Of a DNA stretch of 32,000 nt, positions 1-13,753 are shown one piece after another. The notes under the pieces are model-generated. The model was not told where the DNA came from. It did not search any database and saw only the letters and a list, made by a program, of their open reading frames with translations. The position numbers were made by a program, and so were the translations under genes. Position 1 is the stretch's first letter; each line of letters opens with the position of its first letter. This stretch comes from Alkanindiges illinoisensis DSM 15370. GTDB lineage: Bacteria > Pseudomonadota > Gammaproteobacteria > Pseudomonadales > Moraxellaceae. Location: NCBI RefSeq assembly GCF_000619845.1, contig NZ_JHUX01000010.1:1-32000 (forward strand), given 5' to 3'.

Positions 1-1
1 C

Positions 2-562
2 GATGCAGGCCTGGACTACTACAACCATAACCTCGATACCTCACGCCAGCATTACAGCAATGTGATCACCACCCGCAGCTTTGATGACCGCCTGCAAACT
101 TTAGAGCATGTGCGTAACAGTGGCATGAAAGTGTGTAGTGGTGGCATTTTAGGCTTAGGTGAGCAGCAAAGCGACCGCATCAGCTTATTGCATGAACTGG
201 CCACCCAGCCCATCCATCCCCAGTCAGTACCCATCAATATGCTGGTGCCGATTGCAGGCACTCCCCTTGCAGATGCCCCCAAGGTGAGTGTGATCGAATG
301 GGTCAGAACCATTGCCACTGCCCGTATCCTGATGCCCAAGAGTTATATTCGCCTGTCTGCAGGTCGTGAAGGCCTGACCGATGCTGAGCAGGCGCTTTGT
401 TTTCAGGCGGGTGCCAATTCGTTTTTCTCTGGTGAGCAATTGCTGACCACGCCCAATGCAGGTGAAAGCCGTGATGCAGTTTTATTTGCACAACTGGGCA
501 TTACCAAGGAAAAAGCCAGGCTGGATGTTAAAGCGGCCGCTGTTGATGCGATGAGTGCCTGA
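2..562 (+). CDS. bioB: Biotin synthase, C-terminal part (5' end lies outside the window)
   Basis: The frame is open from base 2. The translation [54 protein letters not shown]... matches the conserved BioB core and C-terminus as I remember it. Confidence 0.9.
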
Positions 563-759
563 ATTTTTATCAGGATAAGCATGTTGCTAGTGCAATAAAA
601 ATCCACTAGGGACTGTTTGCTATTTAATCCTATCGTTTTATATAGTTATTTTCTGTCACTTCCACATCATCCTATATCTGCTCTCCTGGTTTATGATCAC
701 CCCAGCCAAGTATATTTTCCTAAGATAAATAAATGAAATCTCTTATAGGAAAATGAATT

Positions 760-1071
760 ATGGAGTTAGAAATGCATTCGGAAATTTTCTTTAAAAACTC
801 AGTAATATCTCATTTGGAATTTGTTAATAATAGAGATATTATTAAATTTGTAAGCACTGATAATGAGCATTCATCATTAGGAGAATTAATTTGTGAGAAA
901 ATAATTTCCTTTAATTATATCTATGATTTCGAAGAGGACTATTATTTATCTAGCATTTTTATATTTGGTGTTAAAATTATAAAGTTAAATAACTTCTTTG
1001 AAGTAATTTTTGATATGCTGGAAATATTTAACATCAAATGTAAAAATTGTAATATAGTAGAAGTAACCTAA
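760..1071 (+). CDS. Hypothetical small protein (103 aa), very AT-rich; candidate orphan immunity-type protein
   Basis: Intact ORF with AGGA about 9 nt upstream of the ATG. A hairpin/T-tract follows at 1105-1150. I recognise no family. Confidence 0.5.
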   Translation: MELEMHSEIFFKNSVISHLEFVNNRDIIKFVSTDNEHSSLGELICEKIISFNYIYDFEEDYYLSSIFIFGVKIIKLNNFFEVIFDMLEIFNIKCKNCNIVEVT

Positions 1072-1104
1072 ATATTAAAATAAATAATACTTAAGCTAAA
1101 AATG

Positions 1105-1150
1105 AGCTATCTAAAATATTGGTCAGTAAATTAGGTAGCTTATTTTTCTT
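1105..1150 (+). terminator. Putative rho-independent terminator
   Basis: AGCTATCTAA (1105-1114) pairs with TTAGGTAGCT (1131-1140) with one G-U pair, followed by TATTTTTCTT. The loop is large (16 nt). Confidence 0.4.
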
Positions 1151-1155
1151 GTTAG

Positions 1156-1389
1156 ATTCTAGTTGCACATGCGGATAATGGTCCGATCAATATGGTCGAT
1201 ATAACTGAGTATTATAATAAATTTATTAATTCTAAGGCTTCAAGTAGACAAGAAATAGCTTTAGCATTAAATTGAGAAAGAGTCAGATTTCTGGAAAATA
1301 AAGGCCCTGCTCCTGGTCAAGCTGGTGCTAATACGAAACATGATTATATGACCCCATTTAGGGAGGCTATAAAAAATGGAAGTAAATAA
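1156..1389 (+). pseudogene. Start-less reading frame with an in-frame TGA; possible decayed toxin C-terminal fragment
   Basis: A single frame reads ILVAHADNGPINMVDITEYYNKFINSKASSRQEIALALN*ERVRFLENKGPAPGQAGANTKHDYMTPFREAIKNGSK*. There is an in-frame TGA at 1273-1275 and no plausible start codon at the 5' end. The stop (1387-1389) overlaps the next ORF's ATG (1376) by 14 nt. Confidence 0.3.
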
Positions 1390-1873
1390 AAAAGATGCTT
1401 TACTGATACTAAATGGTTCAGAACCATACGTTATTCTGGATGATATTACTGATGCTAAAATTAAATCATTTAATTGCAAATTAGGATATTGTCCATGGAT
1501 AGCACAACCAGAGTTACTGGTTAGAGCAAATCTTCTGATTGGATTAACGTATATAATACCTGATCAATATATGTTGCATGTTTTAAAATGGGTTGAAGAG
1601 TTAAAGAGTGCCCATGTAAAGGTAAGTAAGATTGTATCTAAGAAATACTATAAGATTGAAGACTATTCTAATCAATATATGTTTGAAGTTTACTGGATAC
1701 TTCAAGAGCCAGATGCAAAGGAAGGGTTAGCATTGACAGAAGATTTTTGGCTGCTATCACAAAATAGCGATGAAGATTCTTTAAATAATGTATTTGCTAT
1801 AGGATTGAGTAATCCACATGAAGTTGCACAGGATCATGATTTGGAATGGAAAACTGAACTTATTAAATCCTAA
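1376..1873 (+). CDS. Hypothetical protein (165 aa); candidate immunity protein for the upstream decayed fragment
   Basis: Intact ORF with a strong SD (AGGGAGG) ~8 nt upstream. Its start overlaps the end of the upstream frame by 14 nt. AT-rich. I recognise no family. Confidence 0.6.
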   Translation: MEVNKKDALLILNGSEPYVILDDITDAKIKSFNCKLGYCPWIAQPELLVRANLLIGLTYIIPDQYMLHVLKWVEELKSAHVKVSKIVSKKYYKIEDYSNQYMFEVYWILQEPDAKEGLALTEDFWLLSQNSDEDSLNNVFAIGLSNPHEVAQDHDLEWKTELIKS

Positions 1874-1874
1874 T

Positions 1875-2389
1875 ATGAATTTAACACCTATACCTTGTTC
1901 ATTTTTTCGTGAAAAATCACTTTGTCATGGCGAGATGTGCTTTGGGGATATAAACATCAATTAGTTAGTTGGCAAACTTTTATAGCAATTGCTAATGATC
2001 GATTGATGTTGGGTTCACTTAATCCCATGGAAATAGATCTTTCTATAATTACCAAGGAAGATACCTTTCGAATCAATAAATTAGTTCATGTATTAGCCAA
2101 TAGAGAGGAGATTGACCCTGAAGATAATAGCGAGCAAAAATGGCTATTCATATTACTTTCTTGGTTATATGAGAATAGAAGTAATATTGTTGATCCTTTA
2201 GCAAAAGTTTAATCTATTTATGCAGACTTTGATTATCCTTCTGAGATAGAGGAATTCATCAGTTATATGCCTTTAACTGATGGATGCAATCCTAATCAAC
2301 ACACTAAAGAAGAAAATAAAAATAGATTATTTTCAAAGTAGAAAGAATATCTTTTGCTGACAGAAGAATGTTTCAAAGGCAAAAATTAA
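1875..2389 (+). pseudogene. Disrupted gene (listed ORF 1922..2212 is its middle part); probable small immunity-type/DUF protein
   Basis: An ATG at 1875 lies 1 nt after the previous stop, but that frame stops after 29 codons. The main frame (from 1913/1922) continues in phase through TAA 2210-2212 and TAG 2339-2341 to TAA 2387-2389: ...DPLAKV*SIYADFDYPSEIEEFISYMPLTDGCNPNQHTKEENKNRLFSK*KEYLLLTEECFKGKN*. The ...IYADFDYP.EIE.F..YMP tail reminds me of DUF2247-like proteins (unverified). Confidence 0.5.
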
Positions 2390-2512
2390 GAAGTCTATTA
2401 AACGTTTGTATTCTGGCTTAGTAGGTAATTCGGAACGGTAGTTTCCGGATTACTTGCTGAAATAGTGATAACTCTTTTTCTGGTTTATTAGATCCTAAAA
2501 GGTAAACACAAT

Positions 2513-2782
2513 ATGTCATTAGTAAATGAATTTAAAATTGATTTTATAAGTAGCGTGGAGTTTGAGTGGCTTGCGGTAGAAGTTTTATTTCGCGGGCAAA
2601 GATTAATGCAATTAAATCGAGAAAAAGGTATTGAAAATATTGAGATAGAATTTTTAACAGATATCTATCTTTTACCAGGAACAGTAGAAATGAAGTTTTC
2701 ACTAGAAGATTTTATTTATATAATACACGAAGCAAAACAAGCATTAATATTAGCTTATGAGCAAGCTGATTATTTAAAGTAA
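2513..2782 (+). CDS. Hypothetical small acidic protein (89 aa); candidate orphan immunity-type protein
   Basis: Intact ORF in the same orientation as the array. AT-rich with a weak SD. I recognise no family. Confidence 0.5.
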   Translation: MSLVNEFKIDFISSVEFEWLAVEVLFRGQRLMQLNREKGIENIEIEFLTDIYLLPGTVEMKFSLEDFIYIIHEAKQALILAYEQADYLK

Positions 2783-2809
2783 CCGGATCATAGAGAGTTT
2801 GATTCATAG

Positions 2810-3231
2810 GAAGGAAGTAACTCAGTCTATTCAGCAAATGATCTGGTTAACAAAATAGATTCTGATGATAGGCTCTCAACTTTAATTGCTATAGGTATTG
2901 TATCAGCTATAGACAGCATTATTGATGGAGTGCCACCTCAGTTAAAGGGAGCAAGAACTGCTGGTGGGATTGCAAAGAGTATGGAAGAAGGGCTAGTTAT
3001 GTAAATGCTAAATCTTTAGTTAGAACTCATGCTATTTCTGGAAAAAACTATATTGTTGATGGACATCATAGAGCTGCCGCTGCTCGTAGCCTAAATGAAG
3101 AGATTCCTATTCGGTATAATAATATCAGTGAGATTAATAATCCTGTATATAATTCTGCTGATAAAATACTAAACAGTACTAAAGAGACTAGTTCTACACT
3201 ATACAGGTCAACTAAATATGGAAGAAATTAA
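2810..3231 (+). pseudogene. Decayed toxin C-terminal fragment with a ParB/Srx-like motif
   Basis: No start codon. Frame 2 (2810-3004) reads EGSNSVYSANDLVNKIDSDDRLSTLIAIGIVSAIDSIIDGVPPQLKGARTAGGIAKSMEEGLVM*. The reading then continues after a 1-nt phase shift near 2985-3000 as ...SYVNAKSLVRTHAISGKNYIVDGHHRAAAARSLNEEIPIRYNNISEINNPVYNSADKILNSTKETSSTLYRSTKYGRN*. The YxVDGHHRxxAA motif is the hallmark of ParB/sulfiredoxin-fold domains. The stop (3229-3231) overlaps the next ATG (3218) by 14 nt. Confidence 0.45.
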
Positions 3232-3625
3232 CTTACAGGATGATTTTACTGGTTTTATTAATTTATTTATTTCGAGCAGCAAATGGGCGATTACAGAATT
3301 CTATTCTGCTCTTGGAACTAACGATTTAAGAGAAGCTTACGATAGGTTAAATTTAAAGAGAGAAGATACCATAAATGGCATCTTCTACTCCTTTCATGGA
3401 AATGGTATTTTTTTAAAATTAAAATCTATGACTATTGATATTGATTTTTTACCAAATTATAGCTTAGGCGGTTTTGATGCATCGAGGTTATCAACCTTCT
3501 ATGAAGAAAACTTTACTATATCCTCAGACTACGACTATCGTATCTTTGAAAAAAAATTAAAGGAGTTAGAACAAAATGGTGTTATTAAAAAGTTTAAGGG
3601 AAAGAATTTGTATGTTTTCACGTAA
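3218..3625 (+). CDS. Hypothetical protein (135 aa); candidate cognate immunity protein of the ParB-like toxin remnant
   Basis: Intact ORF, translationally coupled by a 14-nt overlap to the upstream fragment. A strong terminator follows. Confidence 0.6.
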   Translation: MEEINLQDDFTGFINLFISSSKWAITEFYSALGTNDLREAYDRLNLKREDTINGIFYSFHGNGIFLKLKSMTIDIDFLPNYSLGGFDASRLSTFYEENFTISSDYDYRIFEKKLKELEQNGVIKKFKGKNLYVFT

Positions 3626-3644
3626 ATATATTCAATAATTCGCT

Positions 3645-3685
3645 AGTATGAAGTATGTTCTGAGGATACTTCATACTATTTTAAT
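3645..3685 (+). terminator. Rho-independent terminator
   Basis: Perfect 12-bp stem: AGTATGAAGTAT (3645-3656) pairs with ATACTTCATACT (3666-3677). The loop is 9 nt and the stem is followed by ATTTTAATGTTT. Confidence 0.6.
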
Positions 3686-3687
3686 GT

Positions 3688-3802
3688 TTATACCTATTTA
3701 TTTTCTACGAAAAAATAATTTGTCATGGTGGGATTTACGTTAGGTATATAGAAATTAATTATTTGGCTAGCAAACTATTATAGTAATCGCTAACGATTAC
3801 CT
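3688..3802 (+). repeat. Degenerate second copy of the 5' end of the 1875..2389 gene
   Basis: An ungapped alignment of 1921-1999 with 3719-3797 gives 61/79 identities by my count. Flanking similarity continues upstream (TATACCT...TTTT). This copy hits a stop after ~10 codons (LSWWDLRLGI*) and ends near the truncated 3' end of the integrase. Confidence 0.5.
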
Positions 3803-3924
3803 TCGCTCTTTTTTAAAATAAACTAATCTCTTTCAGACACAAAACTAGATTTTTGATTTTCCTATATTGCTCATCGGTATAAGTGCTATGTTTTTGGTTT
3901 GAGGATAGAAATAAAAAGGGAAGG

Positions 3925-4986
3925 TTATTGAGAGTTTAAACTAAAACCAACACGCCTCAATAGATGATATAGCGTCCCTGAACCCATCATGCCATTCCGT
4001 CCTGGAAAAATATAAGGACTGTCTGGATACGCCTCAAACTGTTCTTGGATAATAGCCATCATTTGTGTTGAAAGCGGAACAATATGAATGCGGTTTTTTT
4101 TCATATTACGCTGGCCAGCTTTGAGCTGCTTTTTTGATGCAACAGGGATAGTCCATGTTTGATCATCCCAATTGATATAACTCTTTAAGCCGCGTCTTAC
4201 CTCAATTGTGCGTAGCATGGAGTACAACAAAGCCCGCGCAGCATTCTTCGTGCTTAAGGTGCTACCGCTATCAGTGATGTTCTTGAGAATATTTGACCGC
4301 TCTTGGGCTTCCATGGGCTTGGCATGTTCATGGGCAGGAAACTCAATATAGTCACGCAAAATATAGGTTGGGTTGATGCTTGCGCGTTTGGTAATAATGG
4401 CATAGGCAAATACTTCGCCAATATAACTTTTGACCAATCTGGCTGCATATTCACCAGTACCCACATTACCCCCCTTATTTTGCCGTATTCCGCTTCTGAT
4501 ACGCGCTATGACTTTATCAATAACTCCAATGACGTGCTGGGAATCAATTTCATTAGTAGGCAGTCTACCAATGCAAGGATAAACATCACGTTCAAAATAA
4601 GATTGTCGGCTGCTTAGCTAGTTAGCTGATTTGTTTTCTTTCCTTTTTTCGAGCATTTCTTTTGAAATTTCTTCAAAAGTTTCATTTTTATTTTTAATGG
4701 CTTCCAGCTTTACCGTTTCCTTATTGGCTTGGGGGTCTATCCCTTTGGCTAATAATTCCCGCTGTTTTAAGGTATCCTGCCGGGCAAAGGCCAGTGAAAT
4801 TTCAGGATGGTTCCCGATGGTATACATCTTGGGAACATTAAGAAATCGATAACGGAATCGCCAGATTTTAGTACCCGTTGGACGAACTTCAAGGCATAGT
4901 CCATCATGGTCAGCAACGCGATAAAGTTTATCAGTTGGCTTGAGCTGTTTTACTTTGGTATCGGTGAGTAAGATTGTGAGTAACAT
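3925..4986 (-). pseudogene. int: P4-type tyrosine integrase, inactivated (in-frame TAG plus loss of the catalytic C-terminus)
   Basis: The N-terminus MLLTILLTDTKVKQLKPTDKLYRVADHDGLCLEVRPTGTKIWRFRYRF... is typical of the P4-integrase arm-binding (DUF4102-type) domain. ORFs 4618..4986 and 3925..4464 are in the same frame, joined through 4465-4617 (LSSRQSYFERDVYPCIGRLPTNEIDSQHVIGVIDKV...) and separated only by a TAG at 4618-4620. The protein ends at ...GTLYHLLRRVGFSLNSQ*, just before where the HxxR...Y catalytic region is expected. Confidence 0.85.
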
Positions 4987-5014
4987 GAAATCTTACTCAC
5001 AATCTTACTCACAA
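4964..5014. repeat. Perfect 20-bp inverted repeat (9-nt spacer) plus a 12-bp tandem repeat spanning the integrase start codon
   Basis: GTGAGTAAGATTGTGAGTAA (4964-4983) is the exact reverse complement of TTACTCACAATCTTACTCAC (4993-5012). The spacer CATGAAATC contains the integrase ATG (4984-4986, minus strand). TCTTACTCACAA is repeated in tandem (4991-5002 and 5003-5014). The 8-mer TTACTCAC therefore occurs four times, two in each orientation, at 12-bp spacing. Confidence 0.9.
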
Positions 5015-5106
5015 AATGTCTGGTTGTCATCATACAAGTATGGATGTTATCGGACAATCAAGTGAATATATAGTGATTAATTTCAGTAATTTAAGGAATA
5101 TATCGG

Positions 5107-5322
5107 ATGTGTATGGATGAGATTAGAGATTTGCAAGTTAAAATTGCATTTCAGGATGATTTTATTGAGTCTTTAAACCAGATGGTGGCCAGCCAGCAGC
5201 ACACCATTCTGGATTTGCAAAAACAGATGCAGTTGCTGTACCAGCGGGTGGAATCTTACCAGAATGGCGAAAATGGTGTCGCGCCATTTGACCCTTTACA
5301 GGAAATTCCACCGCATTACTAA
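5107..5322 (+). CDS. slyX: SlyX family protein
   Basis: 71 aa coiled-coil protein: ...IAFQDDFIESLNQMVASQQHTILDLQKQMQLLYQRV...EIPPHY. The AFQ motif and PPHY terminus match E. coli SlyX as I recall it. The start could be 5107 or 5113. Confidence 0.75.
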   Translation: MCMDEIRDLQVKIAFQDDFIESLNQMVASQQHTILDLQKQMQLLYQRVESYQNGENGVAPFDPLQEIPPHY

Positions 5323-5373
5323 GCAATGACGGTGGATAACCAGTATGGCGTCTTATTAATGTGGATTAAACGC

Positions 5374-6165
5374 TTAATCTTCAAACTGCCTAAAATTTGG
5401 TGCGCGTTTTTCCTTAAATGCTGCCACTGCTTCATGCAAGGCTGCAGAGTGCGCGCGCTCAATGAATAATTCTCCTTCGGCATTAATTTGTTGCAGCACC
5501 TGAGGCGTATGGCCGCGTAACAGTTGCTTGCTCATTTTCAGACTGGCAATCGGCAACTGGGTCAGGCGGCTCGCCTTGGCAAATGCATACTCGTAGACAT
5601 CGGCATCTTCGACAATATGGTTAACCAGTCCCGCTGACAATGCACTTTGGGCATTAAAGGGTTCACCCAGTAATAGCATTTCTGCTGCTTTTAAATAACC
5701 AGCTCGCTGGGGCAGTAATAAGGTAGACGCGCCTTCTGGCACCAGCCCCAGGGTTAAAAATGGCAACTGGAAGCGTGCCTTGGCATCGGTATACACGAGG
5801 TCTGCATGCAGCAGCAGGGTTGAACCAATACCAATGGCAACACCTTTAATGGCAATTACTAGCGGCTTGCTAAAGTTAGCTGCGGCGCGCAAGACAACAA
5901 ACGCGGGTGCTTCGGTATTTTTTGGCGGATTGTCAATAAAATCCTGCAAGTCATTACCGGCACAAAAATCCTGTTCACCCCGTAATAGCACCACACGCAC
6001 TGCACTGGACTGGTCAGCTTCATGGAGGGATTTCGCCAGTGCCAAATAAAAGTCACCAAAAAATGCGTTCTTGCGCTCAGGGCGGTTAAGGATCAGTTCC
6101 AGAATGCCATTGTCATGCAACTGGGCATTCAGGTTGGCATGCGGGTTGGTCACGCAGTTCAGCAT
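5374..6165 (-). CDS. Enoyl-CoA hydratase/isomerase (crotonase) family protein
   Basis: 263 aa with typical crotonase motifs (RPERKNAF, FCAGNDL, KPLVIAIKGVAIGIGSTLLLHADL, AAFKEKRAP). Confidence 0.85.
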   Translation of the reverse strand: MLNCVTNPHANLNAQLHDNGILELILNRPERKNAFFGDFYLALAKSLHEADQSSAVRVVLLRGEQDFCAGNDLQDFIDNPPKNTEAPAFVVLRAAANFSKPLVIAIKGVAIGIGSTLLLHADLVYTDAKARFQLPFLTLGLVPEGASTLLLPQRAGYLKAAEMLLLGEPFNAQSALSAGLVNHIVEDADVYEYAFAKASRLTQLPIASLKMSKQLLRGHTPQVLQQINAEGELFIERAHSAALHEAVAAFKEKRAPNFRQFED

Positions 6166-6526
6166 CGTTATGGTTCCTGATAAATGTACTGCCTGATCAT
6201 AAAACTGGGTGGCATAAAGTACGAGTAAAAAATATGGTTGCTGCGTTGATTATTTTTGTGGAAATGACTGTCGCACTAATCATTTCCACACCAATCATTT
6301 TTGGGTAGCTATTTTATAACACTGAACTGCAAATTGATAAGCACCGGGGAAGGTGGCAAAAGTTGCCAAGCTATGATGCTGATGGTTATCCGTGATAAGC
6401 AGACAGGAAACTTGCCTTTATATCGTGGCTTAGGCACTCTACGCTAAATAGCCAATACCACGGTACTGGGAAATTGAAGTATCAAAAACCACAATATGAG
6501 AAATCAGGCATGAGGAATAAGACATT

Positions 6527-6979
6527 ATGAGTGCAACAGCTTACTGGATTATTGGCTTTATTGTACTGTTTATTCTGGGATCTATTATGGGCCTGCGCGT
6601 GAGCCCGCGTGAGAAAGCACTGGGTGAAATGCGTGACCGTGCACGTAAAATGGGGCTGCATCCGCGCCTGATGCCTGCACCGGCATGGATTCATCATACT
6701 GCACCTTCGGGACGTGAAGGCGGCATGGTGGCGTTTTACAGTATTTTGCTGCCGGAAGCCCGCTTGCCCCTGATGCAGGCACTGGTTAACGGGCAAAAAC
6801 TGCAAGTGAAAACCGGGAACACGCAATTTGATGGACAATCCCTCGATTTAAAGGGAATATACGCGCTAGAAATGCAAGCCAACTGTGCAGGCCTGTATTG
6901 GGATGAAGAAAGCGATTTGCATGGCGAACAGCTTGAAAAAATGAAGAATACCCTTATGTCCTTTGCACAGCAGGCTTAA
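6527..6979 (+). CDS. Hypothetical membrane-anchored protein (150 aa)
   Basis: Backbone GC. It has an N-terminal hydrophobic helix (AYWIIGFIVLFILGSIMGL) and sits immediately upstream of topA. I recognise no family. Confidence 0.6.
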   Translation: MSATAYWIIGFIVLFILGSIMGLRVSPREKALGEMRDRARKMGLHPRLMPAPAWIHHTAPSGREGGMVAFYSILLPEARLPLMQALVNGQKLQVKTGNTQFDGQSLDLKGIYALEMQANCAGLYWDEESDLHGEQLEKMKNTLMSFAQQA

Positions 6980-7021
6980 ATTCAGCAAGCTACCCTTAAT
7001 TTTTGAGAAAACCGAAGCACT

Positions 7022-9721
7022 ATGCCAACAGCGCCACGCTCTACCACAAAAACAACTGCCAGAAGCCGTAAGGCAGCCAGCAGTACTGCCCTGCCTGATG
7101 ATGATCAGGACATCAGTACGGCTAAAAAGGCACGTGCACTGGTTATTGTAGAGTCACCTGCCAAAGCCAAAACCATTAATAAATATCTGGGCAAGGATTA
7201 TATTGTCAAATCCAGCGTGGGCCATGTGCGTGACCTGCCGACCAGTGGTGGCGGAAAAACCACAACGGCAGCCAAGGGCCAGACCAAAACCAAGCTGACC
7301 GCTGCAGAAAAAGAAGCCAAAGCCCAGCAGGCACTGGTCAATCGCATGGGTGTTGACCCGGAACATGGCTGGAAGGCGCACTATGAAGTGTTGCCCGGCA
7401 AGGAAAATGTAGTTAGTGAGCTGAAAAAACTGGCATCGCAAGTCGATGAAGTATATCTGGCAACGGACTTGGATAGAGAAGGGGAAGCCATTGCCTGGCA
7501 CTTGCAGCAGGTGATTGGTGGCAAACCCGAGCGCTATCGCCGCGTGGTGTTTAATGAAATTACCAAAAATGCCATTCAGGATGCCTTTAAAACGCCGGGT
7601 CGCCTTGATGTGGACAAGGTTAATGCACAGCAGGCACGCCGCTTTTTAGACCGTGTGGTGGGCTTTATGGTGTCGCCACTGCTCTGGGAAAAAATTGCCC
7701 GTGGCCTGTCGGCTGGCCGGGTGCAGTCGGTTGCGGTAAAGCTGGTGGTGGAGCGCGAGCGTGAAATCCGGGCATTTATTCCCGAAGAATACTGGCAGAT
7801 TTTTGCCGATACGCTGAGCCAGAAAGCCAAGCAAAGCGACGAAATCCGTCTGGAAGCGGTTAAGCAAAACGGTAAAACCCTGAAACTGCAAAACAAGGCA
7901 CAAACAGATGCCGTGCTGGCCGTACTCAAAGATGCAGCCTATAAAATTACGGCGCGGGAAGACAAGCCAACCAAAGTCAACCCTAGTGCGCCGTATATCA
8001 CATCCACCCTGCAACAGGCTGCCAGCACCCGGCTTGGTTTTTCTGTCAAGAAAACCATGACACTGGCGCAGCGTCTGTATGAGGGTGGTTTTATCACCTA
8101 CATGCGTACCGATTCAACGTTTTTAAGTACCGATGCGGTCAACATGGTGCGTCATCATATTGAGCATGAATACGGTGACAAGTACCTGCCTGCCAAGCCA
8201 AACCGCTATGGTAACAAGGCCGGTGCACAGGAAGCACACGAAGCCATTCGTCCATCCAATGTAGGGTTAAAGGGCGACCAGCTCACCACCATGGAGCGTG
8301 ATGCACAGCGCCTATACGACTTGATCTGGCGTCAGTTTGTCTCCTGCCAGATGACGCCAGCAGAATATTTGTCGTCCACCATTATGGTAGAAGCCAATGG
8401 TGTCGAGCTGAAAGCGCGTGGCCGTACCTTGGTATTTGACGGGTTTACCCGTGTGCGTGGTGCCAATAAGCAGGATGATGACGTACTGCTGCCCAGCGTT
8501 AAAGTGGGTGAGGAGCTCAAGCTGGTCAAGCTTGATCCCAGCCAGCATTTTACCAAGCCACCAGCGCGTTTTACCGAAGCTTCACTGGTGAAAGAGCTTG
8601 AGAAAAAAGGTATTGGCCGGCCATCGACCTATGCTGCCATTATTTCCACCATTCAGGATCGTGGCTACGTCAAGCTTGAAAACAAGCGCCTATATGCTGA
8701 AAAAATGGGTGATATTGTCACCGACCGCTTAAATGAAAACTTTAGCAACCTGATGGATTATGCCTTTACTGCAGATCTGGAAGGGCAACTGGATAAAGTG
8801 GCAACCGGCGAGCGTGACTGGAAAAACCTGCTGGACAGTTTTTATAGTGATTTTACCGCCAAGCTTGCGCATGCCAAGGCACAAGAAGGCATGCGGCCTA
8901 ACCAGCCCGTGGAAGTCCCTGATGTGCACTGCAAGGAATGCGATCGTGCCATGCAGATTCGTACTGGCTCTACCGGGGTATTTTTAGGCTGTTCCGGCTA
9001 CAACCTGCCGCCGAAGGAGCGTTGTAAAGGCACGCTAAATTTGACCCCAGTGGAATCACTGGCCGCCATTACCGATGATGACAGTGCCGAAACTGCCGAC
9101 CTGATGGCCAAAAAACGCTGCCCAAAATGTGATACTGCCATGGACAGCTATTTTATTGATGGTGGGCGCAAGCTGCATGTGTGTGGTAACAATCCGGATT
9201 GCGAAGGCTATCTGGTGGAAGAGGGCAGTTTTAAAATCAAGGGCTATGATGGCCCAACCATTCCTTGCGAAAAATGTAATGGTGAAATGCAGTTAAAAAC
9301 CGGGCGTTTTGGGCCGTACTTTGCCTGCAATAGCTGTGACAACACCCGCAAGGTGCTGAAAAATGGTGAGGCTGCACCGCCGCGTGAAGATCCCATTCAA
9401 ATGCCGCATTTGCGCTCCACCAAGCATGATGATTTCTTTATCCTGCGTGATGGCGCAGCAGGCCTATTTCTGGCAGCCAGCAAGTTTCCCAAGGTGCGTG
9501 AAACCCGTGCGCCAACCATTGCCGAATTGCGTAGTGTCAAAGACCAGCTTGCTGCCAAGTATCAGTACCTGCTTAAAGCCCCTGACACTGACCCAGATGG
9601 CAACCCGGCGATTGTGCGCTGGAGCCGTAAAAACAGTGCGCAGTATATTTCTTCGGAAAAAGACGGCAAGCAAACCAAATGGACCATGATTTTTAAAGAT
9701 GGTAAATGGGTTGAAGGCTGA
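7022..9721 (+). CDS. topA: DNA topoisomerase I
   Basis: 899 aa with the Toprim start [28 protein letters not shown], the active-site region [10 protein letters not shown], and C-terminal Cys4 zinc-ribbon repeats. A ~38-aa basic N-terminal extension precedes the canonical start, so the true start is uncertain. Confidence 0.95.
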
Positions 9722-9820
9722 TTTCTTAAATGGTTTAAGATCATTGTTTGGCTACTAAATTTTTAAATGCAAATAGGTATTTATGATCTTAGTAGCTAGT
9801 TTTTAATTCAAATTAATGGC

Positions 9821-10738
9821 TTACTGCACAACCATTGAATCTAATAGTCGGGTAATTTGTTGATGGTAAAATTTCCAGTTCTCGGCCATTTCTTCCGCAT
9901 CATCTCGTGGATAAGCAATAATTAAGTGATTTTTATATAAAATTTTCATTTGATATCCTGCAAAACCTAGTGAAGAGTCAATTTTTACTGCCATGGCAGG
10001 CGGTGTATTAACAGGTGACCGCCAAAATATAGAATCACGTACTGCTAAGCAATGTGCTGGCGTAATATCGTAGCTAGGCTTATTTGCAAGGTCTTTTAAC
10101 GGCCATTTACTGCTTTCTTGATAATTAGGGTCTAAAGCTTTTTTTTGCAAAGCTTGAACATCATAGCATGTCATTTTTACATACTGCTCAAGCCCCGATA
10201 TGTCCTTGCCTCTAAATAGCTCTTCACCTTCCCCGCAACAGTCCCTTTCTCGGTTAAGCACATCACCCTTTCCATCTCTAAATATTTGTACGACATATTC
10301 ATCTGCATAGATTTCTTTTTGTTTTCTTGTAATCTCTGGGTTGTCAGTTTTTTTAGGATAAACATAAGGAACAGGCTGACCATTAGACCGCCTGAGTTTG
10401 AGATAAATCGTGTCTATCTTACGATTTTCCATTGGCTTTAAAGCCCAAATCACAGTTTCAAACTCATTATTTTTATCCATTGCACCAGATAAATACGCTA
10501 CAGGTATTTTCAACTTTAATGGCGCTATATCCTGTTGAGCGTTGCCTTGCCAATTGACCTGTAGATGGGTTTTAGTTAAATAATATTCAGGTGCATAGCT
10601 TTTATTAAAGCTGTCGATTTGTGCTTCTATACTAAATGGGTTAGAACATGCGGTTAATAGGAAAATAGACAATAACAGAGTAAAAGCCTTTAACCATGGA
10701 TTACCTTTAAATTTTCTCTTAAAATTATATATATACAT
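9821..10738 (-). CDS. Hypothetical lipoprotein (305 aa), low-GC
   Basis: Signal peptide with lipobox (LLLSIFLLTAC). The gene and both flanks are markedly more AT-rich than the neighbours. I recognise no family. Confidence 0.7.
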   Translation of the reverse strand: MYIYNFKRKFKGNPWLKAFTLLLSIFLLTACSNPFSIEAQIDSFNKSYAPEYYLTKTHLQVNWQGNAQQDIAPLKLKIPVAYLSGAMDKNNEFETVIWALKPMENRKIDTIYLKLRRSNGQPVPYVYPKKTDNPEITRKQKEIYADEYVVQIFRDGKGDVLNRERDCCGEGEELFRGKDISGLEQYVKMTCYDVQALQKKALDPNYQESSKWPLKDLANKPSYDITPAHCLAVRDSIFWRSPVNTPPAMAVKIDSSLGFAGYQMKILYKNHLIIAYPRDDAEEMAENWKFYHQQITRLLDSMVVQ

Positions 10739-10845
10739 TTAATAATTCTCATCTTAGATAAAATAGTAATTAACTTTAATAAATATCTTTTTTAATAACT
10801 AATGATCTTAAGTGAAGTATAATAATCAATTATTTTATGACATTA

Positions 10846-11634
10846 TTAATTCACCCAGCCAATCTCTCTTGCGGTCTTTGGCCCAATCACAGTTTGCGCC
10901 AGATTTTTAGGAATCACTGCCTTGCTTTCATTAATGACCAGTCGTCCGCCCATCAGCTCGGCTTTGGCTTGAGGAAATAACGGCTGCTGCTGCGGATTGC
11001 CATAGCCATCGGGAAAGGCGGGCATGTTATTGGCAAAATCATATTTATCGTTAGCGCCCAAGGTATGCAGCAGTTCATGGCTTAAAATCACCAGATTCTG
11101 CTGGCTATAGCTGGCTTCACCGAACAGGTTAACCCGGCCCACACGGCCTTTTTGCAATGCCGTGGAATGGCTTAAACTGCGATGCTGCTTTGGATCAAAA
11201 TACAGTAAGTACAGCTGAATTTGTGGATGGATGCTAAAGTCCTGCTCATTTCGCCAGGCAAAATAGCGTAGCTTTAAACTCCACAGCATGATTTCAATAA
11301 TGCCCCCATTGACTGGCGGGGCAGGCGGCAATTGACTAATGGGTTTACCCAGCACAATATTAATTGGGCGATACAAAGGAACGCCATAACGCCTGGCTTC
11401 GCTATTTAAAAACTCACTTGCTTCTACAAAGTCAGCTGCAGTTAGGTGTTGAATATACTGCTCAACCTGCGGATTATTTTCTACATTGACGGGATAGACC
11501 GCCACATAAAAGCTGTTTTTCCAGTTCAGGTCGGCTTTATCCTGTAGCGATTGAATAATCACCACGGCCAGAATAACCAATAAAATAAAGACCCGGATTT
11601 TTTCCACATAAGCTGTCCTGTGGCTAAGCTTCAA
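10846..11634 (-). CDS. Membrane-anchored putative zinc metallopeptidase-like protein (HExxHxxGxxD motif)
   Basis: 262 aa with an N-terminal TM helix (VFILLVILAVVIIQ) and the motif SHELLHTLGANDKYD. It starts 9 bp downstream of corA on the same strand. Confidence 0.7.
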   Translation of the reverse strand: MKLSHRTAYVEKIRVFILLVILAVVIIQSLQDKADLNWKNSFYVAVYPVNVENNPQVEQYIQHLTAADFVEASEFLNSEARRYGVPLYRPINIVLGKPISQLPPAPPVNGGIIEIMLWSLKLRYFAWRNEQDFSIHPQIQLYLLYFDPKQHRSLSHSTALQKGRVGRVNLFGEASYSQQNLVILSHELLHTLGANDKYDFANNMPAFPDGYGNPQQQPLFPQAKAELMGGRLVINESKAVIPKNLAQTVIGPKTAREIGWVN

Positions 11635-11643
11635 TCAAGCGGT

Positions 11644-12615
11644 TTAACGCAGCCAGCCTTTGCGCTTGATATAAATAAGTGGCAACAATGCCGCTGCAAC
11701 CGTCAGAATCATGGAGTAAATAAAGCCATATTTCCATGACAGTTCCGGCATCACTGAAAAATTCATGCCATAAAATGTGCCTACCAAGGTGGGTGGCAGG
11801 AACACCGCAGTGATAATGGTAAAAATCTTAACGATCTGGTTTTGTTTAATGTTCAGGATGTTGGTAACTGCATTTTGCAGGTAACGCACTTTTTCATGTT
11901 CAAAATAGGCATGTTCCTTGACCCCTGTCACATCTGCCGCCAGTTCATTCACCAGCTCTTCAAGCTCAGGATGGGTGAGGCTATCGACTTCGCCACTTAA
12001 GTAACGCACTGCCCGTGCCAGTGAGAGCTGTGCTTCCAGACAGCGTGAAATCAGTTCTTCTTTTTCATTCAGGCGGCGCATGATCTTCAGCAGATCTTTT
12101 ACACCCAGTTCGCGGCCATCGGCACTGTAACCTTCTGAAATCTCAAAAATGTGTTCAGAAAGACATTCTAGCGCATCGGTAATATGGTCAAGGCTATTAT
12201 CAGCCATGTCATTTGCTGCCCGAAGCAGCACTCTCAGCACGGCACGTGGATTTTGATGATTACGTGGTTTCTTACGCAAGCGTGCAATGACCTGATTAAA
12301 AGGTTGAAAATCCGCATGATGGCTTAAGGTCGCAACCCAGTGCTCGCCCAAAATAAAGTTTATCCGCCCAAACTGTGGGGTGCCGCCTTCGGTCAGCCTG
12401 AGCAGATCGGTACGCAAATACAGTAAATCATCCGTTTCCATCACGCTATTGCGCTGGACAGCCACCTCTATACCAAAATGTGAGCGTAAAATCGTGGCTT
12501 CATCTATAGTAGGCGCAGTAATCTCAAGCCAAATAATCTGGCCATCATCCTGTGCGTCAGGCAAGCCCTGAATCATTTTTAATTCTTGTGCAGTTTTGAT
12601 CAGGCAGTTAATCAT
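11644..12615 (-). CDS. corA: CorA/ZntB-family divalent metal ion transporter
   Basis: 323 aa with two C-terminal TM helices and the YGMNF signature. Confidence 0.85.
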   Translation of the reverse strand: MINCLIKTAQELKMIQGLPDAQDDGQIIWLEITAPTIDEATILRSHFGIEVAVQRNSVMETDDLLYLRTDLLRLTEGGTPQFGRINFILGEHWVATLSHHADFQPFNQVIARLRKKPRNHQNPRAVLRVLLRAANDMADNSLDHITDALECLSEHIFEISEGYSADGRELGVKDLLKIMRRLNEKEELISRCLEAQLSLARAVRYLSGEVDSLTHPELEELVNELAADVTGVKEHAYFEHEKVRYLQNAVTNILNIKQNQIVKIFTIITAVFLPPTLVGTFYGMNFSVMPELSWKYGFIYSMILTVAAALLPLIYIKRKGWLR

Positions 12616-12681
12616 AAAAAAACTCGTTGCTTTGGCTTTTTACGCTATCAATAGATTGATTTATAGGATGTATCTAAAAAA

Positions 12682-12801
12682 TTATGCAGCAAAGTTCCAG
12701 TAATGGACAAATACCATGATGCCAACAATCAAAAGATAAAGCACCAGTACGGCAAGCAGGACTTCATTTTCCATGCTGATTTTATGATTGTTTTTTTTCA
12801 T
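12682..12801 (-). CDS. Possible small membrane protein (39 aa)
   Basis: Found by hand translation; it is not in the ORF track because it is under 60 aa. Sequence: MKKNNHKISMENEVLLAVLVLYLLIVGIMVFVHYWNFAA*, with one clear hydrophobic helix. Confidence 0.3.
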   Translation of the reverse strand: MKKNNHKISMENEVLLAVLVLYLLIVGIMVFVHYWNFAA

Positions 12802-12907
12802 GTTAAACACTGGACAGGCAGGTGAAGATGACAGACAATAGTAACCATAAAAAAATAACTTAAGCCAGACCAGTTGCCCGGCTTAAGCCATCATCATGCA
12901 GGCAAGT

Positions 12908-13753
12908 TTAGCGAATGGCATCGCCCCAGGCCGGCACAATGGTTTGCATCAGCGGTTTCAGCAATTTCATGGAGGTGGCAATAATCTGCCCATTGTTCAG
13001 GCTGTCTGTGCCGCCTTTGGCATCTACAACCACGCCGCCGGCTTCCTTGACAATCAGCTCACCAGCCGCCAGATCCCATGGCTTTAAGCCCAGTTCAAAG
13101 TAGCCATCAAAACGCCCGGCAGCCACGTAGGCCAGATCCAGCGCGGCAGAACCACCACGACGGATTTGCGCCCCGGCTTTGGTCACGGCCAGTAGGGTAT
13201 TGAAGTGCTGTTCGGCATATGATACGACTTCACCATTGCGTATGGTGGCATATGGATAGCCCACCGCCAGAAAAGTGTCTTGTAAAGTGTCTTTGGGGGT
13301 CATACGAATACGGCGCTGGGTTCCACTGACATCACGCAACAGGGCACCCTGACCACGGCTAGCCGTAAACATTTCGTCTTTAACGGGGTCATAAATGACG
13401 CCATGCTGGGTCACACCTTTGTGCTGCACGGCAATCGACACACAAAAATGCGGATAACCCTGAATAAAGTTAACGGTGCCATCTAAAGGATCAATAATCC
13501 AGCACCAGTCAGCGTCATTGCCCTGACCTTCCTGAAGGCCAAATTCTTCACCCAGAAAGCTGTGCTTGGGATAGCTTTTTTTTAGGGTAGCAATAGTAAG
13601 TTCTTCAATATAGCGATCCAAACGGGTAACCGGACCATCAATACCCTTGCTTTGAATTTGCAAGTCCAGCTTATGGCGATTTTGATGCGCTTTTAAAATT
13701 TCACTGCCAACTGTTTGAGCCGCGCGCGCAGCCATCACCACCATAGGTTCCAT
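12908..13753 (-). CDS. suhB: Inositol monophosphatase family protein
   Basis: 281 aa. MEPMVVMAARAAQ... aligns with E. coli SuhB MHPMLNIAVRAAR. The LGEE, WIIDPLDGTVNF and GSAALDLAYVAAGR motifs are present. Confidence 0.9.
   Translation of the reverse strand: MEPMVVMAARAAQTVGSEILKAHQNRHKLDLQIQSKGIDGPVTRLDRYIEELTIATLKKSYPKHSFLGEEFGLQEGQGNDADWCWIIDPLDGTVNFIQGYPHFCVSIAVQHKGVTQHGVIYDPVKDEMFTASRGQGALLRDVSGTQRRIRMTPKDTLQDTFLAVGYPYATIRNGEVVSYAEQHFNTLLAVTKAGAQIRRGGSAALDLAYVAAGRFDGYFELGLKPWDLAAGELIVKEAGGVVVDAKGGTDSLNNGQIIATSMKLLKPLMQTIVPAWGDAIR

Follow-up and report, generated by a model that had tools for sequence, protein, structure and literature searches.

We analyzed a 32,000-nucleotide (nt) stretch of Alkanindiges illinoisensis DSM 15370 (contig NZ_JHUX01000010.1, positions 1-32,000; hereafter the window), in which an insert lies at 600-5040 with bioB on one side and slyX on the other. 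The insert ends in an integrase gene, and the part that precedes it, which we call the cargo, has a G+C content of 30.4% (positions 600-3924; segments span 22.8-35.4%), compared with 52.8% in bioB, 51.3% in topA and 47.8% in the remaining window. A first-pass annotation, made from the letters of the DNA, had pointed to a block of foreign composition between bioB and slyX, and the difference is indeed clear (30% versus ~48-51% in the flanks); its value of ~57% for topA was too high. The + strand carries every cargo open reading frame (ORF), including the four intact ORFs at 760-1071, 1376-1873, 2513-2782 and 3218-3625 that the annotation had listed. Six runs of 96 codons or more on this strand of the island are free of stops, compared with a mean of 0.11 runs of at least 89 codons in 500 shuffles. 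An independent Logan assembly (SRR3313971) was 100% identical to window 413-13625, which indicates that the lesions described below are not an artefact of one assembler. The cargo contains the following features, where ORFs are named after their first position:

760-1071, + strand: intact ORF of 103 amino acids (aa), WP_026472020.1, family unassigned; candidate immunity gene by position only
1147-1389, + strand: putative toxin tip, unclassified; a start-less C-terminal frame, proposed from its coupling to ORF 1376
1376-1873, + strand: intact ORF of 165 aa; candidate immunity gene for the tip upstream, from the 14-nt overlap
1875-2389, + strand: Imm38/DUF2247 immunity pseudogene (Pfam PF10004, E 7.4e-41, profile positions 6-154 of 158, with the repaired translation)
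2461-2505, + strand: last 14 codons of a toxin tip (NSDNSFSGLLDPKR, then the stop codon), the third toxin remnant; 90% DNA identity to locus L017
2513-2782, + strand: intact ORF of 89 aa, WP_026472022.1; probable immunity partner of the tip to which that tail belonged, with homologues after tips in L017 and L019
2810-3231, + strand: dead Tox-ParB (DGHHR) toxin tip; homology to RHS C-termini and ParB/Srx-fold profile matches
3218-3625, + strand: intact DUF6896 gene, 135 aa (Pfam PF21837, E 8.8e-18)
3650-3800, + strand: 5' fragment of a second Imm38/DUF2247 gene, with three stops, truncated after ~40 codons

Each of the three toxin-tip remnants is directly followed by a small intact ORF on the same strand, and the cargo also holds one and a third Imm38 pseudogenes and one more small ORF (ORF 760). 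As the first-pass annotation had noticed, two start-less broken frames end 14 nt inside the next ORF: the stop at 1387-1389 falls within ORF 1376 (ATG at 1376) and the stop at 3229-3231 within ORF 3218 (ATG at 3218). The annotation had overlooked the toxin tail at 2461-2505 and the pseudogene state of the integrase. All toxin pieces lack a start codon, a delivery domain and a recombination handle; a six-frame motif search of window 500-5100 found neither DPxGL nor VENN. As the ParB core is broken as well, the locus is unable to make a toxin or to donate a usable tip. We are confident about the identity of these parts, and we consider that the block is probably an acquired, now immobile islet of a decaying Rhs/CdiA-type polymorphic-toxin cassette array. 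The earlier suggestion of eroded toxin tips next to retained immunity genes is borne out by the homology to RHS and CdiA tips and by gene order, both described below, and the orphan-immunity reading is supported.

The frame at 2810-3231 is not a complete translatable ParB domain. It has no start codon, it changes frame at 3001-3004 (the first part stops at TAA 3002-3004 and the other frame runs on from 3001), and an alignment reveals that 32 residues are deleted between RTHAISG and KNYIVDGHHR, inside the ParB core. A word-indexed protein search with the repaired remnant gave no match, and an exhaustive search was required: phmmer with the translation of 3001-3228 as the query against 1.8 billion representatives returned six proteins (E 1.7e-6 to 3e-4). 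Among them, P0006 combines RHS repeats with an RHS core that ends in DPLGL, and the ParB-like tip forms its extreme C-terminus; P0005 is a 145-aa ParB_N cassette that scores above the Pfam ParB_N cut-off; and P0007 (BLASTP E 2e-6) covers the tip plus part of the preceding linker. A profile of three intact tips matched sulfiredoxin (1e-6) and ParB (6e-3) in the PDB, and therefore the tip family belongs to the ParB/Srx fold. RHS and hemagglutinin proteins are described as carriers of Tox-ParB tips with a conserved DGHHR (Zhang et al. 2012, PMC3482391). The ParB/Srx-type DGHHR frame recognized in the first-pass annotation is thus real, with its motif at 3058-3072, PDB profile matches and homologues at RHS C-termini. 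A pre-tip linker common to the ParB remnant and L017 was also considered, and it was rejected because BLASTP detected no similarity.

The DUF6896 gene that overlaps the end of this frame matches its family with 65.1 bits (cut-off 27), over profile positions 5-126 of 128. The order of toxin and DUF6896 gene recurs elsewhere. The overlap between an Rhs-ParB gene and the DUF6896 gene after it is 4 nt in L014; L015 has an array headed by an 880-aa C39-peptidase toxin, and within it a DUF6896 gene comes directly after a ParB cassette. An IS3-type transposase has reduced the toxin of L010 to its ~45 last codons, and the DUF6896 gene there is intact and overlaps them by 14 nt as in the window. Two tandem ParB/DUF6896 modules, both decayed, are present in L011. 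This recurrence is the decisive evidence for DUF6896 as the cognate immunity family of this ParB clade, and from the gene order in five loci we conclude that a clade of ParB-type nuclease toxins probably has DUF6896 as its immunity partner. The partners given for Tox-ParB in the 2012 survey are Imm20, Imm27 and Imm-SuFu, with DUF6896 not among them (PMC3482391), and a literature search found no mention of DUF6896. No PDB fold matched the AlphaFold model of the DUF6896 protein (pLDDT 71) at an E below 0.17, a PDB sequence search with the protein gave nothing meaningful, and a metagenome scan with the DUF6896 alignment yielded no confirmed locus. The L011 array is at a later stage of decay. On this metagenome contig (L011 843-1130), DEHHR replaces DGHHR, the tip is frameshifted and the next DUF6896 gene stops at codon 2.

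For ORF 2513, the closest relative is found in an array that still has its parent gene. ORF 2513 falls into one 90%-identity cluster with P0015, which is encoded on the 96.9-kb metagenome contig L017 and sits there in an orphan array behind a 1546-aa Rhs gene. Window 2461-2778 and L017 9949-10266 are 90% identical at the DNA level, and the homology ends abruptly upstream of ~2470 in the window. The ORF 2513 protein has 85% aa identity to the product of the gene directly after an orphan Rhs C-terminal module (Rhs-CT) in L017; this Rhs-CT starts with the core-end handle LQAGLNMFAYADNNPVMNTDPSGL and ends in GDNSFSGLLDPKR and the stop codon. Other homologues, with 39-51% identity, are located on plasmids and megaplasmids. 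The VENN motif marks the boundary of the C-terminal toxin region of CdiA (CdiA-CT), and in L019, a Cronobacter sakazakii plasmid, a homologous tip follows a VENN motif and ends in SFSGFLDPRR and the stop codon just before the immunity gene. In L020, from Ralstonia solanacearum, a 'hemagglutinin' gene is followed by its immunity gene, an IS5 element and then the ORF 2513 homologue, with a degenerate toxin-tail remnant beside it. A tip family that occurs on both Rhs and CdiA-type carriers and always has a small ORF 2513-family gene behind it is what characterizes a polymorphic toxin with its immunity protein. ORF 2513 family members are therefore probably the immunity partners of a tip common to Rhs and CdiA-type carriers. 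A PDB sequence search with ORF 2513 returned nothing meaningful. On the Cronobacter plasmid (pCsaCS09b), L019 6501-7243 comprises an unannotated orphan CdiA-CT with one in-frame stop, followed by the ORF 2513-family gene and IS5; the annotation of the record at these positions consists of short 'hypothetical proteins' only.

The lesions are distributed unevenly over the island. We counted 11 in ~796 pseudogene codons and 0 in 492 intact codons; as a rough comparison, the Poisson probability of finding none in the intact ORFs is 0.001 overall, 1e-5 without the integrase and 0.25 at the integrase rate alone. A competing explanation is that the islet is pure genomic debris, in which everything is decaying, nothing works, and the ORFs are intact through youth or luck. 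The three tips, both Imm38 copies and the integrase, which make up the rest of the block, are all broken, four intact ORFs are unsurprising at the lesion rate of the integrase, promoter-like sites are not enriched, and ORF 760, ORF 1376, ORF 3218 and the exact ORF 2513 sequence are each recorded from one contig only. However, intact ORFs are hardly expected at the lesion rate of the cargo pseudogenes, which is the rate behind the value of 1e-5, and L010 and L020 independently show the same asymmetry between a destroyed toxin and an intact immunity gene. Moreover, the ORF 2513 cassette holds its 90% DNA identity whereas the sequence just upstream has lost all homology. We therefore regard debris as a doubtful explanation, although it is one that deserves to be taken seriously.

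The array that we propose would have arisen elsewhere by C-terminal displacement, in which an incoming module of tip and immunity gene pushes the older one downstream. This process is reviewed in PMC5361080. The array would then have come by horizontal transfer, possibly together with an integrase element at the slyX 5' region, and would now be eroding. Across 3800-3925, the 3'-truncated second Imm38 copy points towards the integrase, which is likewise truncated, so that one deletion between these two convergent genes may have removed both 3' ends. The sole remaining activity of the locus would be protection, in which the DUF6896 and ORF 2513 proteins bind and neutralise matching nuclease-type tips delivered by competitors.

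Several points weigh against the proposal of a decaying toxin cassette array. The gene upstream of the array is bioB and not a full-length toxin, which means that the array has been separated from any parent gene. For the tip at 1147-1389, ORF 1376 and ORF 760 there is no family or context evidence, and the sole homologue of ORF 1376 is a lone gene without a toxin remnant. The sparing statistic depends on the decay rate that is assumed. Integrase and cargo are linked by adjacency alone: the integrase has a G+C content of 41.6%, which lies between that of the cargo (30%) and that of the flanks, and no attachment (att) sites were found. A promoter and terminator scan of window 500-5200 found no enrichment relative to shuffles, so the promoter-like sites count against the proposal as well. 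Finally, the decay of two Imm38 copies indicates that selection for immunity is not general, and for this reason we hold only tentatively, and with somewhat more doubt than belief, that at least one immunity gene is still expressed and protective.

The disrupted two-copy family that had been noticed in the first-pass annotation is Imm38/DUF2247. The pseudogene at 1875-2389 is disrupted by a single frameshift near 1915-1935 and by two in-frame stops (2210-2212 and ~2339-2341), and the 5' parts of the two copies form a direct repeat of 89 nt with 76% identity (1911-1999 and 3709-3797). DUF2247 is Imm38, a published immunity family that is paired with Ntox19 and NGO1392-like HNH toxins (PMC3482391). 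The frame at 1147-1389 contains an in-frame TGA at 1273-1275 and had no family, PDB or plasmid (tblastn) match, and position and the 14-nt coupling are what makes this frame and ORF 1376 a candidate toxin-immunity pair. For ORF 1376, the sole homologue found was P0011 (58% identity), a lone gene in a 1.16-kb islet with 28% G+C between pirin and ahpF in a Moraxellaceae metagenome-assembled genome (MAG; L012 9761-10921). A convergent 103-aa membrane-like ORF adjoins P0011 in that islet, which has no toxin remnant. ORF 1376 itself had no family, PDB or plasmid match, a metagenome scan with its alignment gave no confirmed locus, and its AlphaFold model was unusable (pLDDT 39). ORF 760 (22.8% G+C) showed a sub-threshold full-length Pfam match to an NGO_1070-like family (E 0.29) and no match in PADLOC, PHROGs, NCBIfam, PDB or plasmids. 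We also observed that the two toxin-stop/immunity-start junctions at 1370-1392 and 3212-3234 are nearly identical (AAAAATGGAAGTAAATAA versus AAATATGGAAGAAATTAA, 15 of 18 nt). Both have 14-nt overlaps; the toxin frames end in KNGSK and KYGRN, and the immunity proteins start with MEVNK and MEEIN. The likeness between two unrelated modules could be due to chance in AT-rich DNA or to a common translational-coupling signal.

We compared the surroundings of slyX with those in four relatives. Adjoining slyX is an enoyl-CoA hydratase (ECH) gene whose product shares 95% identity with that of A. illinoisensis NFYY 23406 and 90% with its counterparts in A. hydrocarboniclasticus and a Moraxellaceae MAG. 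The first-pass annotation had raised the case that the block might be ubiquitous core sequence in related genomes; this is not so, as the island is absent beside slyX in all four relatives (L002, whose TopA is 99.4% identical, L003, L004 and L005). The gene order is ECH, slyX, uup in L002, L004 and L005 and ECH, slyX, TauE-like gene in L003. An empty bioB-slyX junction was not found: bioB is beside slyX in none of the four (three have uup and one the TauE-like gene), which makes a clean empty-site comparison impossible. On the right, homology with relatives (L003) restarts at about window 5085. A 71-aa form of slyX (MCMDEIRDLQ...) is common to the window (5085-5130) and L003 (10877-11092), and an 81-aa form (MDEQLRQLE...), the start of which overlaps or abuts uup, is present in L002 (11804-12049), L004 (10845-11090) and L005 (12940-13185). 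The existence of two 5' forms therefore places a synteny break at the 5' end of slyX. Furthermore, three different neighbours are found past slyX in five genomes (bioB plus the island, the TauE-like gene, and uup), which argues that the slyX 5' end is a hotspot of rearrangement or integration. Judged by these comparisons, the block is strain-specific and non-core. Strain NFYY 23406 has an insert of its own between the hydratase gene and slyX (L002 10793-11803): it is 1 kb long, with 28% G+C, and contains two small ORFs (119 aa, membrane-like, and 157 aa) without a Pfam match.

In content and gene order, the locus is closest to the orphan Rhs/CdiA cassette arrays. Orphan Rhs-CT/immunity arrays that form by C-terminal displacement are attributed to Jackson 2009 and Koskiniemi 2014 as cited in PMC5361080. 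Like these, the island has start-less tips followed by small immunity genes on one strand in low-G+C DNA, one of its cassettes is 90% identical in DNA to a cassette of the L017 array, which is a live example, and its ParB tip family is found on an RHS protein. Unlike these, the window has no parent Rhs gene upstream and no DPxGL handle on any tip, all its tips are further broken, and its site is between bioB and a dead integrase. The same look of start-less tips followed by immunity genes, as in the orphan cassettes of L017, would also be expected of a silent cassette store, in which tips are kept for recombination onto a complete Rhs or CdiA gene at another place in the genome. Against such a store, handles of the DPxGL or VENN type are absent from the island, only 14 codons are left of one tip, the ParB tip combines a frameshift with the 32-residue deletion and the third has a nonsense codon. 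We give this explanation very little credence.

Orphan cdiA-CT/cdiI modules belong to contact-dependent inhibition loci. The island resembles them in that the tip family of ORF 2513 follows VENN in Cronobacter and in that a homologue stands after a hemagglutinin-type gene, by an IS5 element, in Ralstonia; it differs in having no VENN, and no CdiA, CdiB or two-partner secretion genes were found in the window. Beyond topA, which encodes an 899-aa topoisomerase I, the window contains 22 ORFs of at least 120 aa, and apart from topA no ORF in 9000-32000 is longer than 639 aa. Ten of them were scanned, and none of the ten is a toxin-delivery gene, in line with the first-pass statement that the window has no full-length Rhs, CdiA or type VI secretion system (T6SS) effector. 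Eight of the ten are housekeeping genes and two had no Pfam match. Just past topA, two - strand ORFs (9821-10738, 305 aa, and 10846-11634, 262 aa) have no Pfam match at E 1e-5, and their counterparts in L001 are likewise without a Pfam family.

The island also shares features with the T6SS orphan immunity arrays of Vibrio cholerae (Kirchberger et al. 2017, PMC5361080), in which old immunity genes outlast effector replacement, effector 3'-end pieces are left behind and acquisition is horizontal. The V. cholerae arrays stay 3' of a working T6SS cluster, whereas the array in the window is detached from secretion loci and is itself decaying. Heterogeneous polyimmunity loci are another point of comparison, since unrelated immunity families stand in tandem in them and Imm38/DUF2247 is listed as a member (PMC3482391). 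According to Zhang et al. 2012 (PMC3482391), toxin genes or cassettes never break up the tandem immunity genes of these loci, and the three interleaved toxin remnants place the locus in the window outside this definition.

An AT-rich, integrase-linked islet of small ORFs without known function could also be anti-phage defence cargo, which the first-pass annotation had kept as an alternative, or a set of phage or regulatory genes. The predicted model of the DUF6896 protein has a winged-helix-like C-terminal part, which would suit such a role. However, PADLOC gave no match for the seven cargo products at E 0.1, PHROGs matched the integrase and, weakly (E 0.007), the repaired DUF2247 frame only, and NCBIfam returned nothing significant for the cargo. 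In addition, three cargo families have a toxin-immunity context or a published immunity status. We regard the anti-phage explanation as having practically no chance of being correct.

The integrase and the edges of the island bear on how the cargo arrived and on whether it could still move. The features concerned are:

1-562, + strand: 3' part of bioB (left flank, core genome; NCBIfam TIGR00433, profile positions 143-306 of 307, E 1.5e-66)
563-759, no strand: AT-rich non-coding left edge, boundary approximate; G+C drops from 53% to 32%
3925-4986, - strand: P4-type tyrosine integrase pseudogene (Pfam and NCBIfam coverage, in-frame stop)
4963-5013, no strand: 12-nt motif TGTGAGTAAGAT in four copies, two direct and two inverted; 23-nt inverted repeat, 96% complementary
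5107-5322, + strand: slyX (right flank; Pfam SlyX 2.9e-19; alignment with L002, L003 and L004)

The integrase occupies a single reading frame with one in-frame TAG at 4615-4617 and ends at 3925. It contains the Pfam domains Arm-DNA-bind_3, Phage_int_M and Phage_integrase, the last over positions 3-118 of 172 only, and it matches NCBIfam PRK09692 over positions 7-330 of 413. Approximately 80 C-terminal residues are missing, including the last third of the catalytic domain; in tyrosine recombinases these residues carry the HxxR box and the catalytic Tyr nucleophile. The gene lies on the strand opposite to the cargo and is convergent on it. No direct repeat of 10 nt or more is common to both island edges, no tRNA or tmRNA gene was detected in the whole window, and Rfam had no match in window 1-7000. 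A search for a repeated intergenic motif found none, the only sizeable repeat being the Imm38 gene fragment. A cassette-boundary motif upstream of ORF 760 and ORF 2513 was considered as well and dropped, as the similarity was only weak.

It is possible that the block is the remnant of a P4-type integrase element that brought a ready-made orphan immunity set to the slyX 5' region, with the DUF6896 and ORF 2513 families still protecting the host. If this were true, the locus would correspond, in a proteobacterium, to mobile acquired interbacterial defence, directed by DUF6896 against Tox-ParB and by the ORF 2513 family against the tip shared by Rhs and CdiA. Unlike P4-type integrase islands, however, the island has no intact integrase, no tRNA or tmRNA site and no flanking direct repeats, and we consider this origin unlikely.

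A more far-reaching variant, put forward in the first-pass annotation as a possibly undescribed integrase-borne system, is an active recombinase-driven island that collects immunity genes and moves between genomes, the proteobacterial counterpart of the recombinase-associated acquired interbacterial defence arrays (rAID-1) of Bacteroidales. The rAID-1 arrays have an intact 5' XerD-like recombinase, at least 44% identical to BF9343_RS08045, with at least two co-directional genes downstream (Ross et al., bioRxiv 10.1101/471110). They have integron-like intergenic repeats, a cargo G+C content of 41% or less and up to 31 genes (Ross et al., bioRxiv 10.1101/471110). As in rAID-1, a tyrosine recombinase adjoins a low-G+C (30.4%), one-strand cluster that includes predicted immunity genes, and a cassette with 90% DNA identity on an unrelated contig implies that single cassettes move. 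In contrast to rAID-1, the recombinase in the window is P4-type and not XerD-like, is convergent on the array and is a pseudogene without its catalytic end, searches found no repeated intergenic motif, att repeats or tRNA, and toxin remnants stand between the immunity genes. The explanation is thus largely refuted for this copy and we consider it very improbable; the suggestion of a new mobile rAID-like system is not supported.

The locus is of a known kind, and it reveals no new type of system. Read as a decaying cassette array, an unannotated block of 'hypothetical proteins' tells of earlier warfare between bacteria in a soil and sludge genus that has been little studied, and adds to the cases in which immunity genes have outlived their toxins, here outside the usual model organisms. 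Annotation would gain in two respects: DUF6896 as a probable immunity family against ParB-type toxins, and the ORF 2513 family as a probable immunity family against a tip shared by Rhs and CdiA.

At the right edge of the island, four of the five matches to TGTGAGTAAGAT in the window are clustered at 4963-5013, where they span the start codon of the integrase, and none is present at the other island edge. Judging by its arrangement, this cluster possibly represents putative binding sites for a recombinase or a regulator, or else a hairpin that would hide the integrase start codon.

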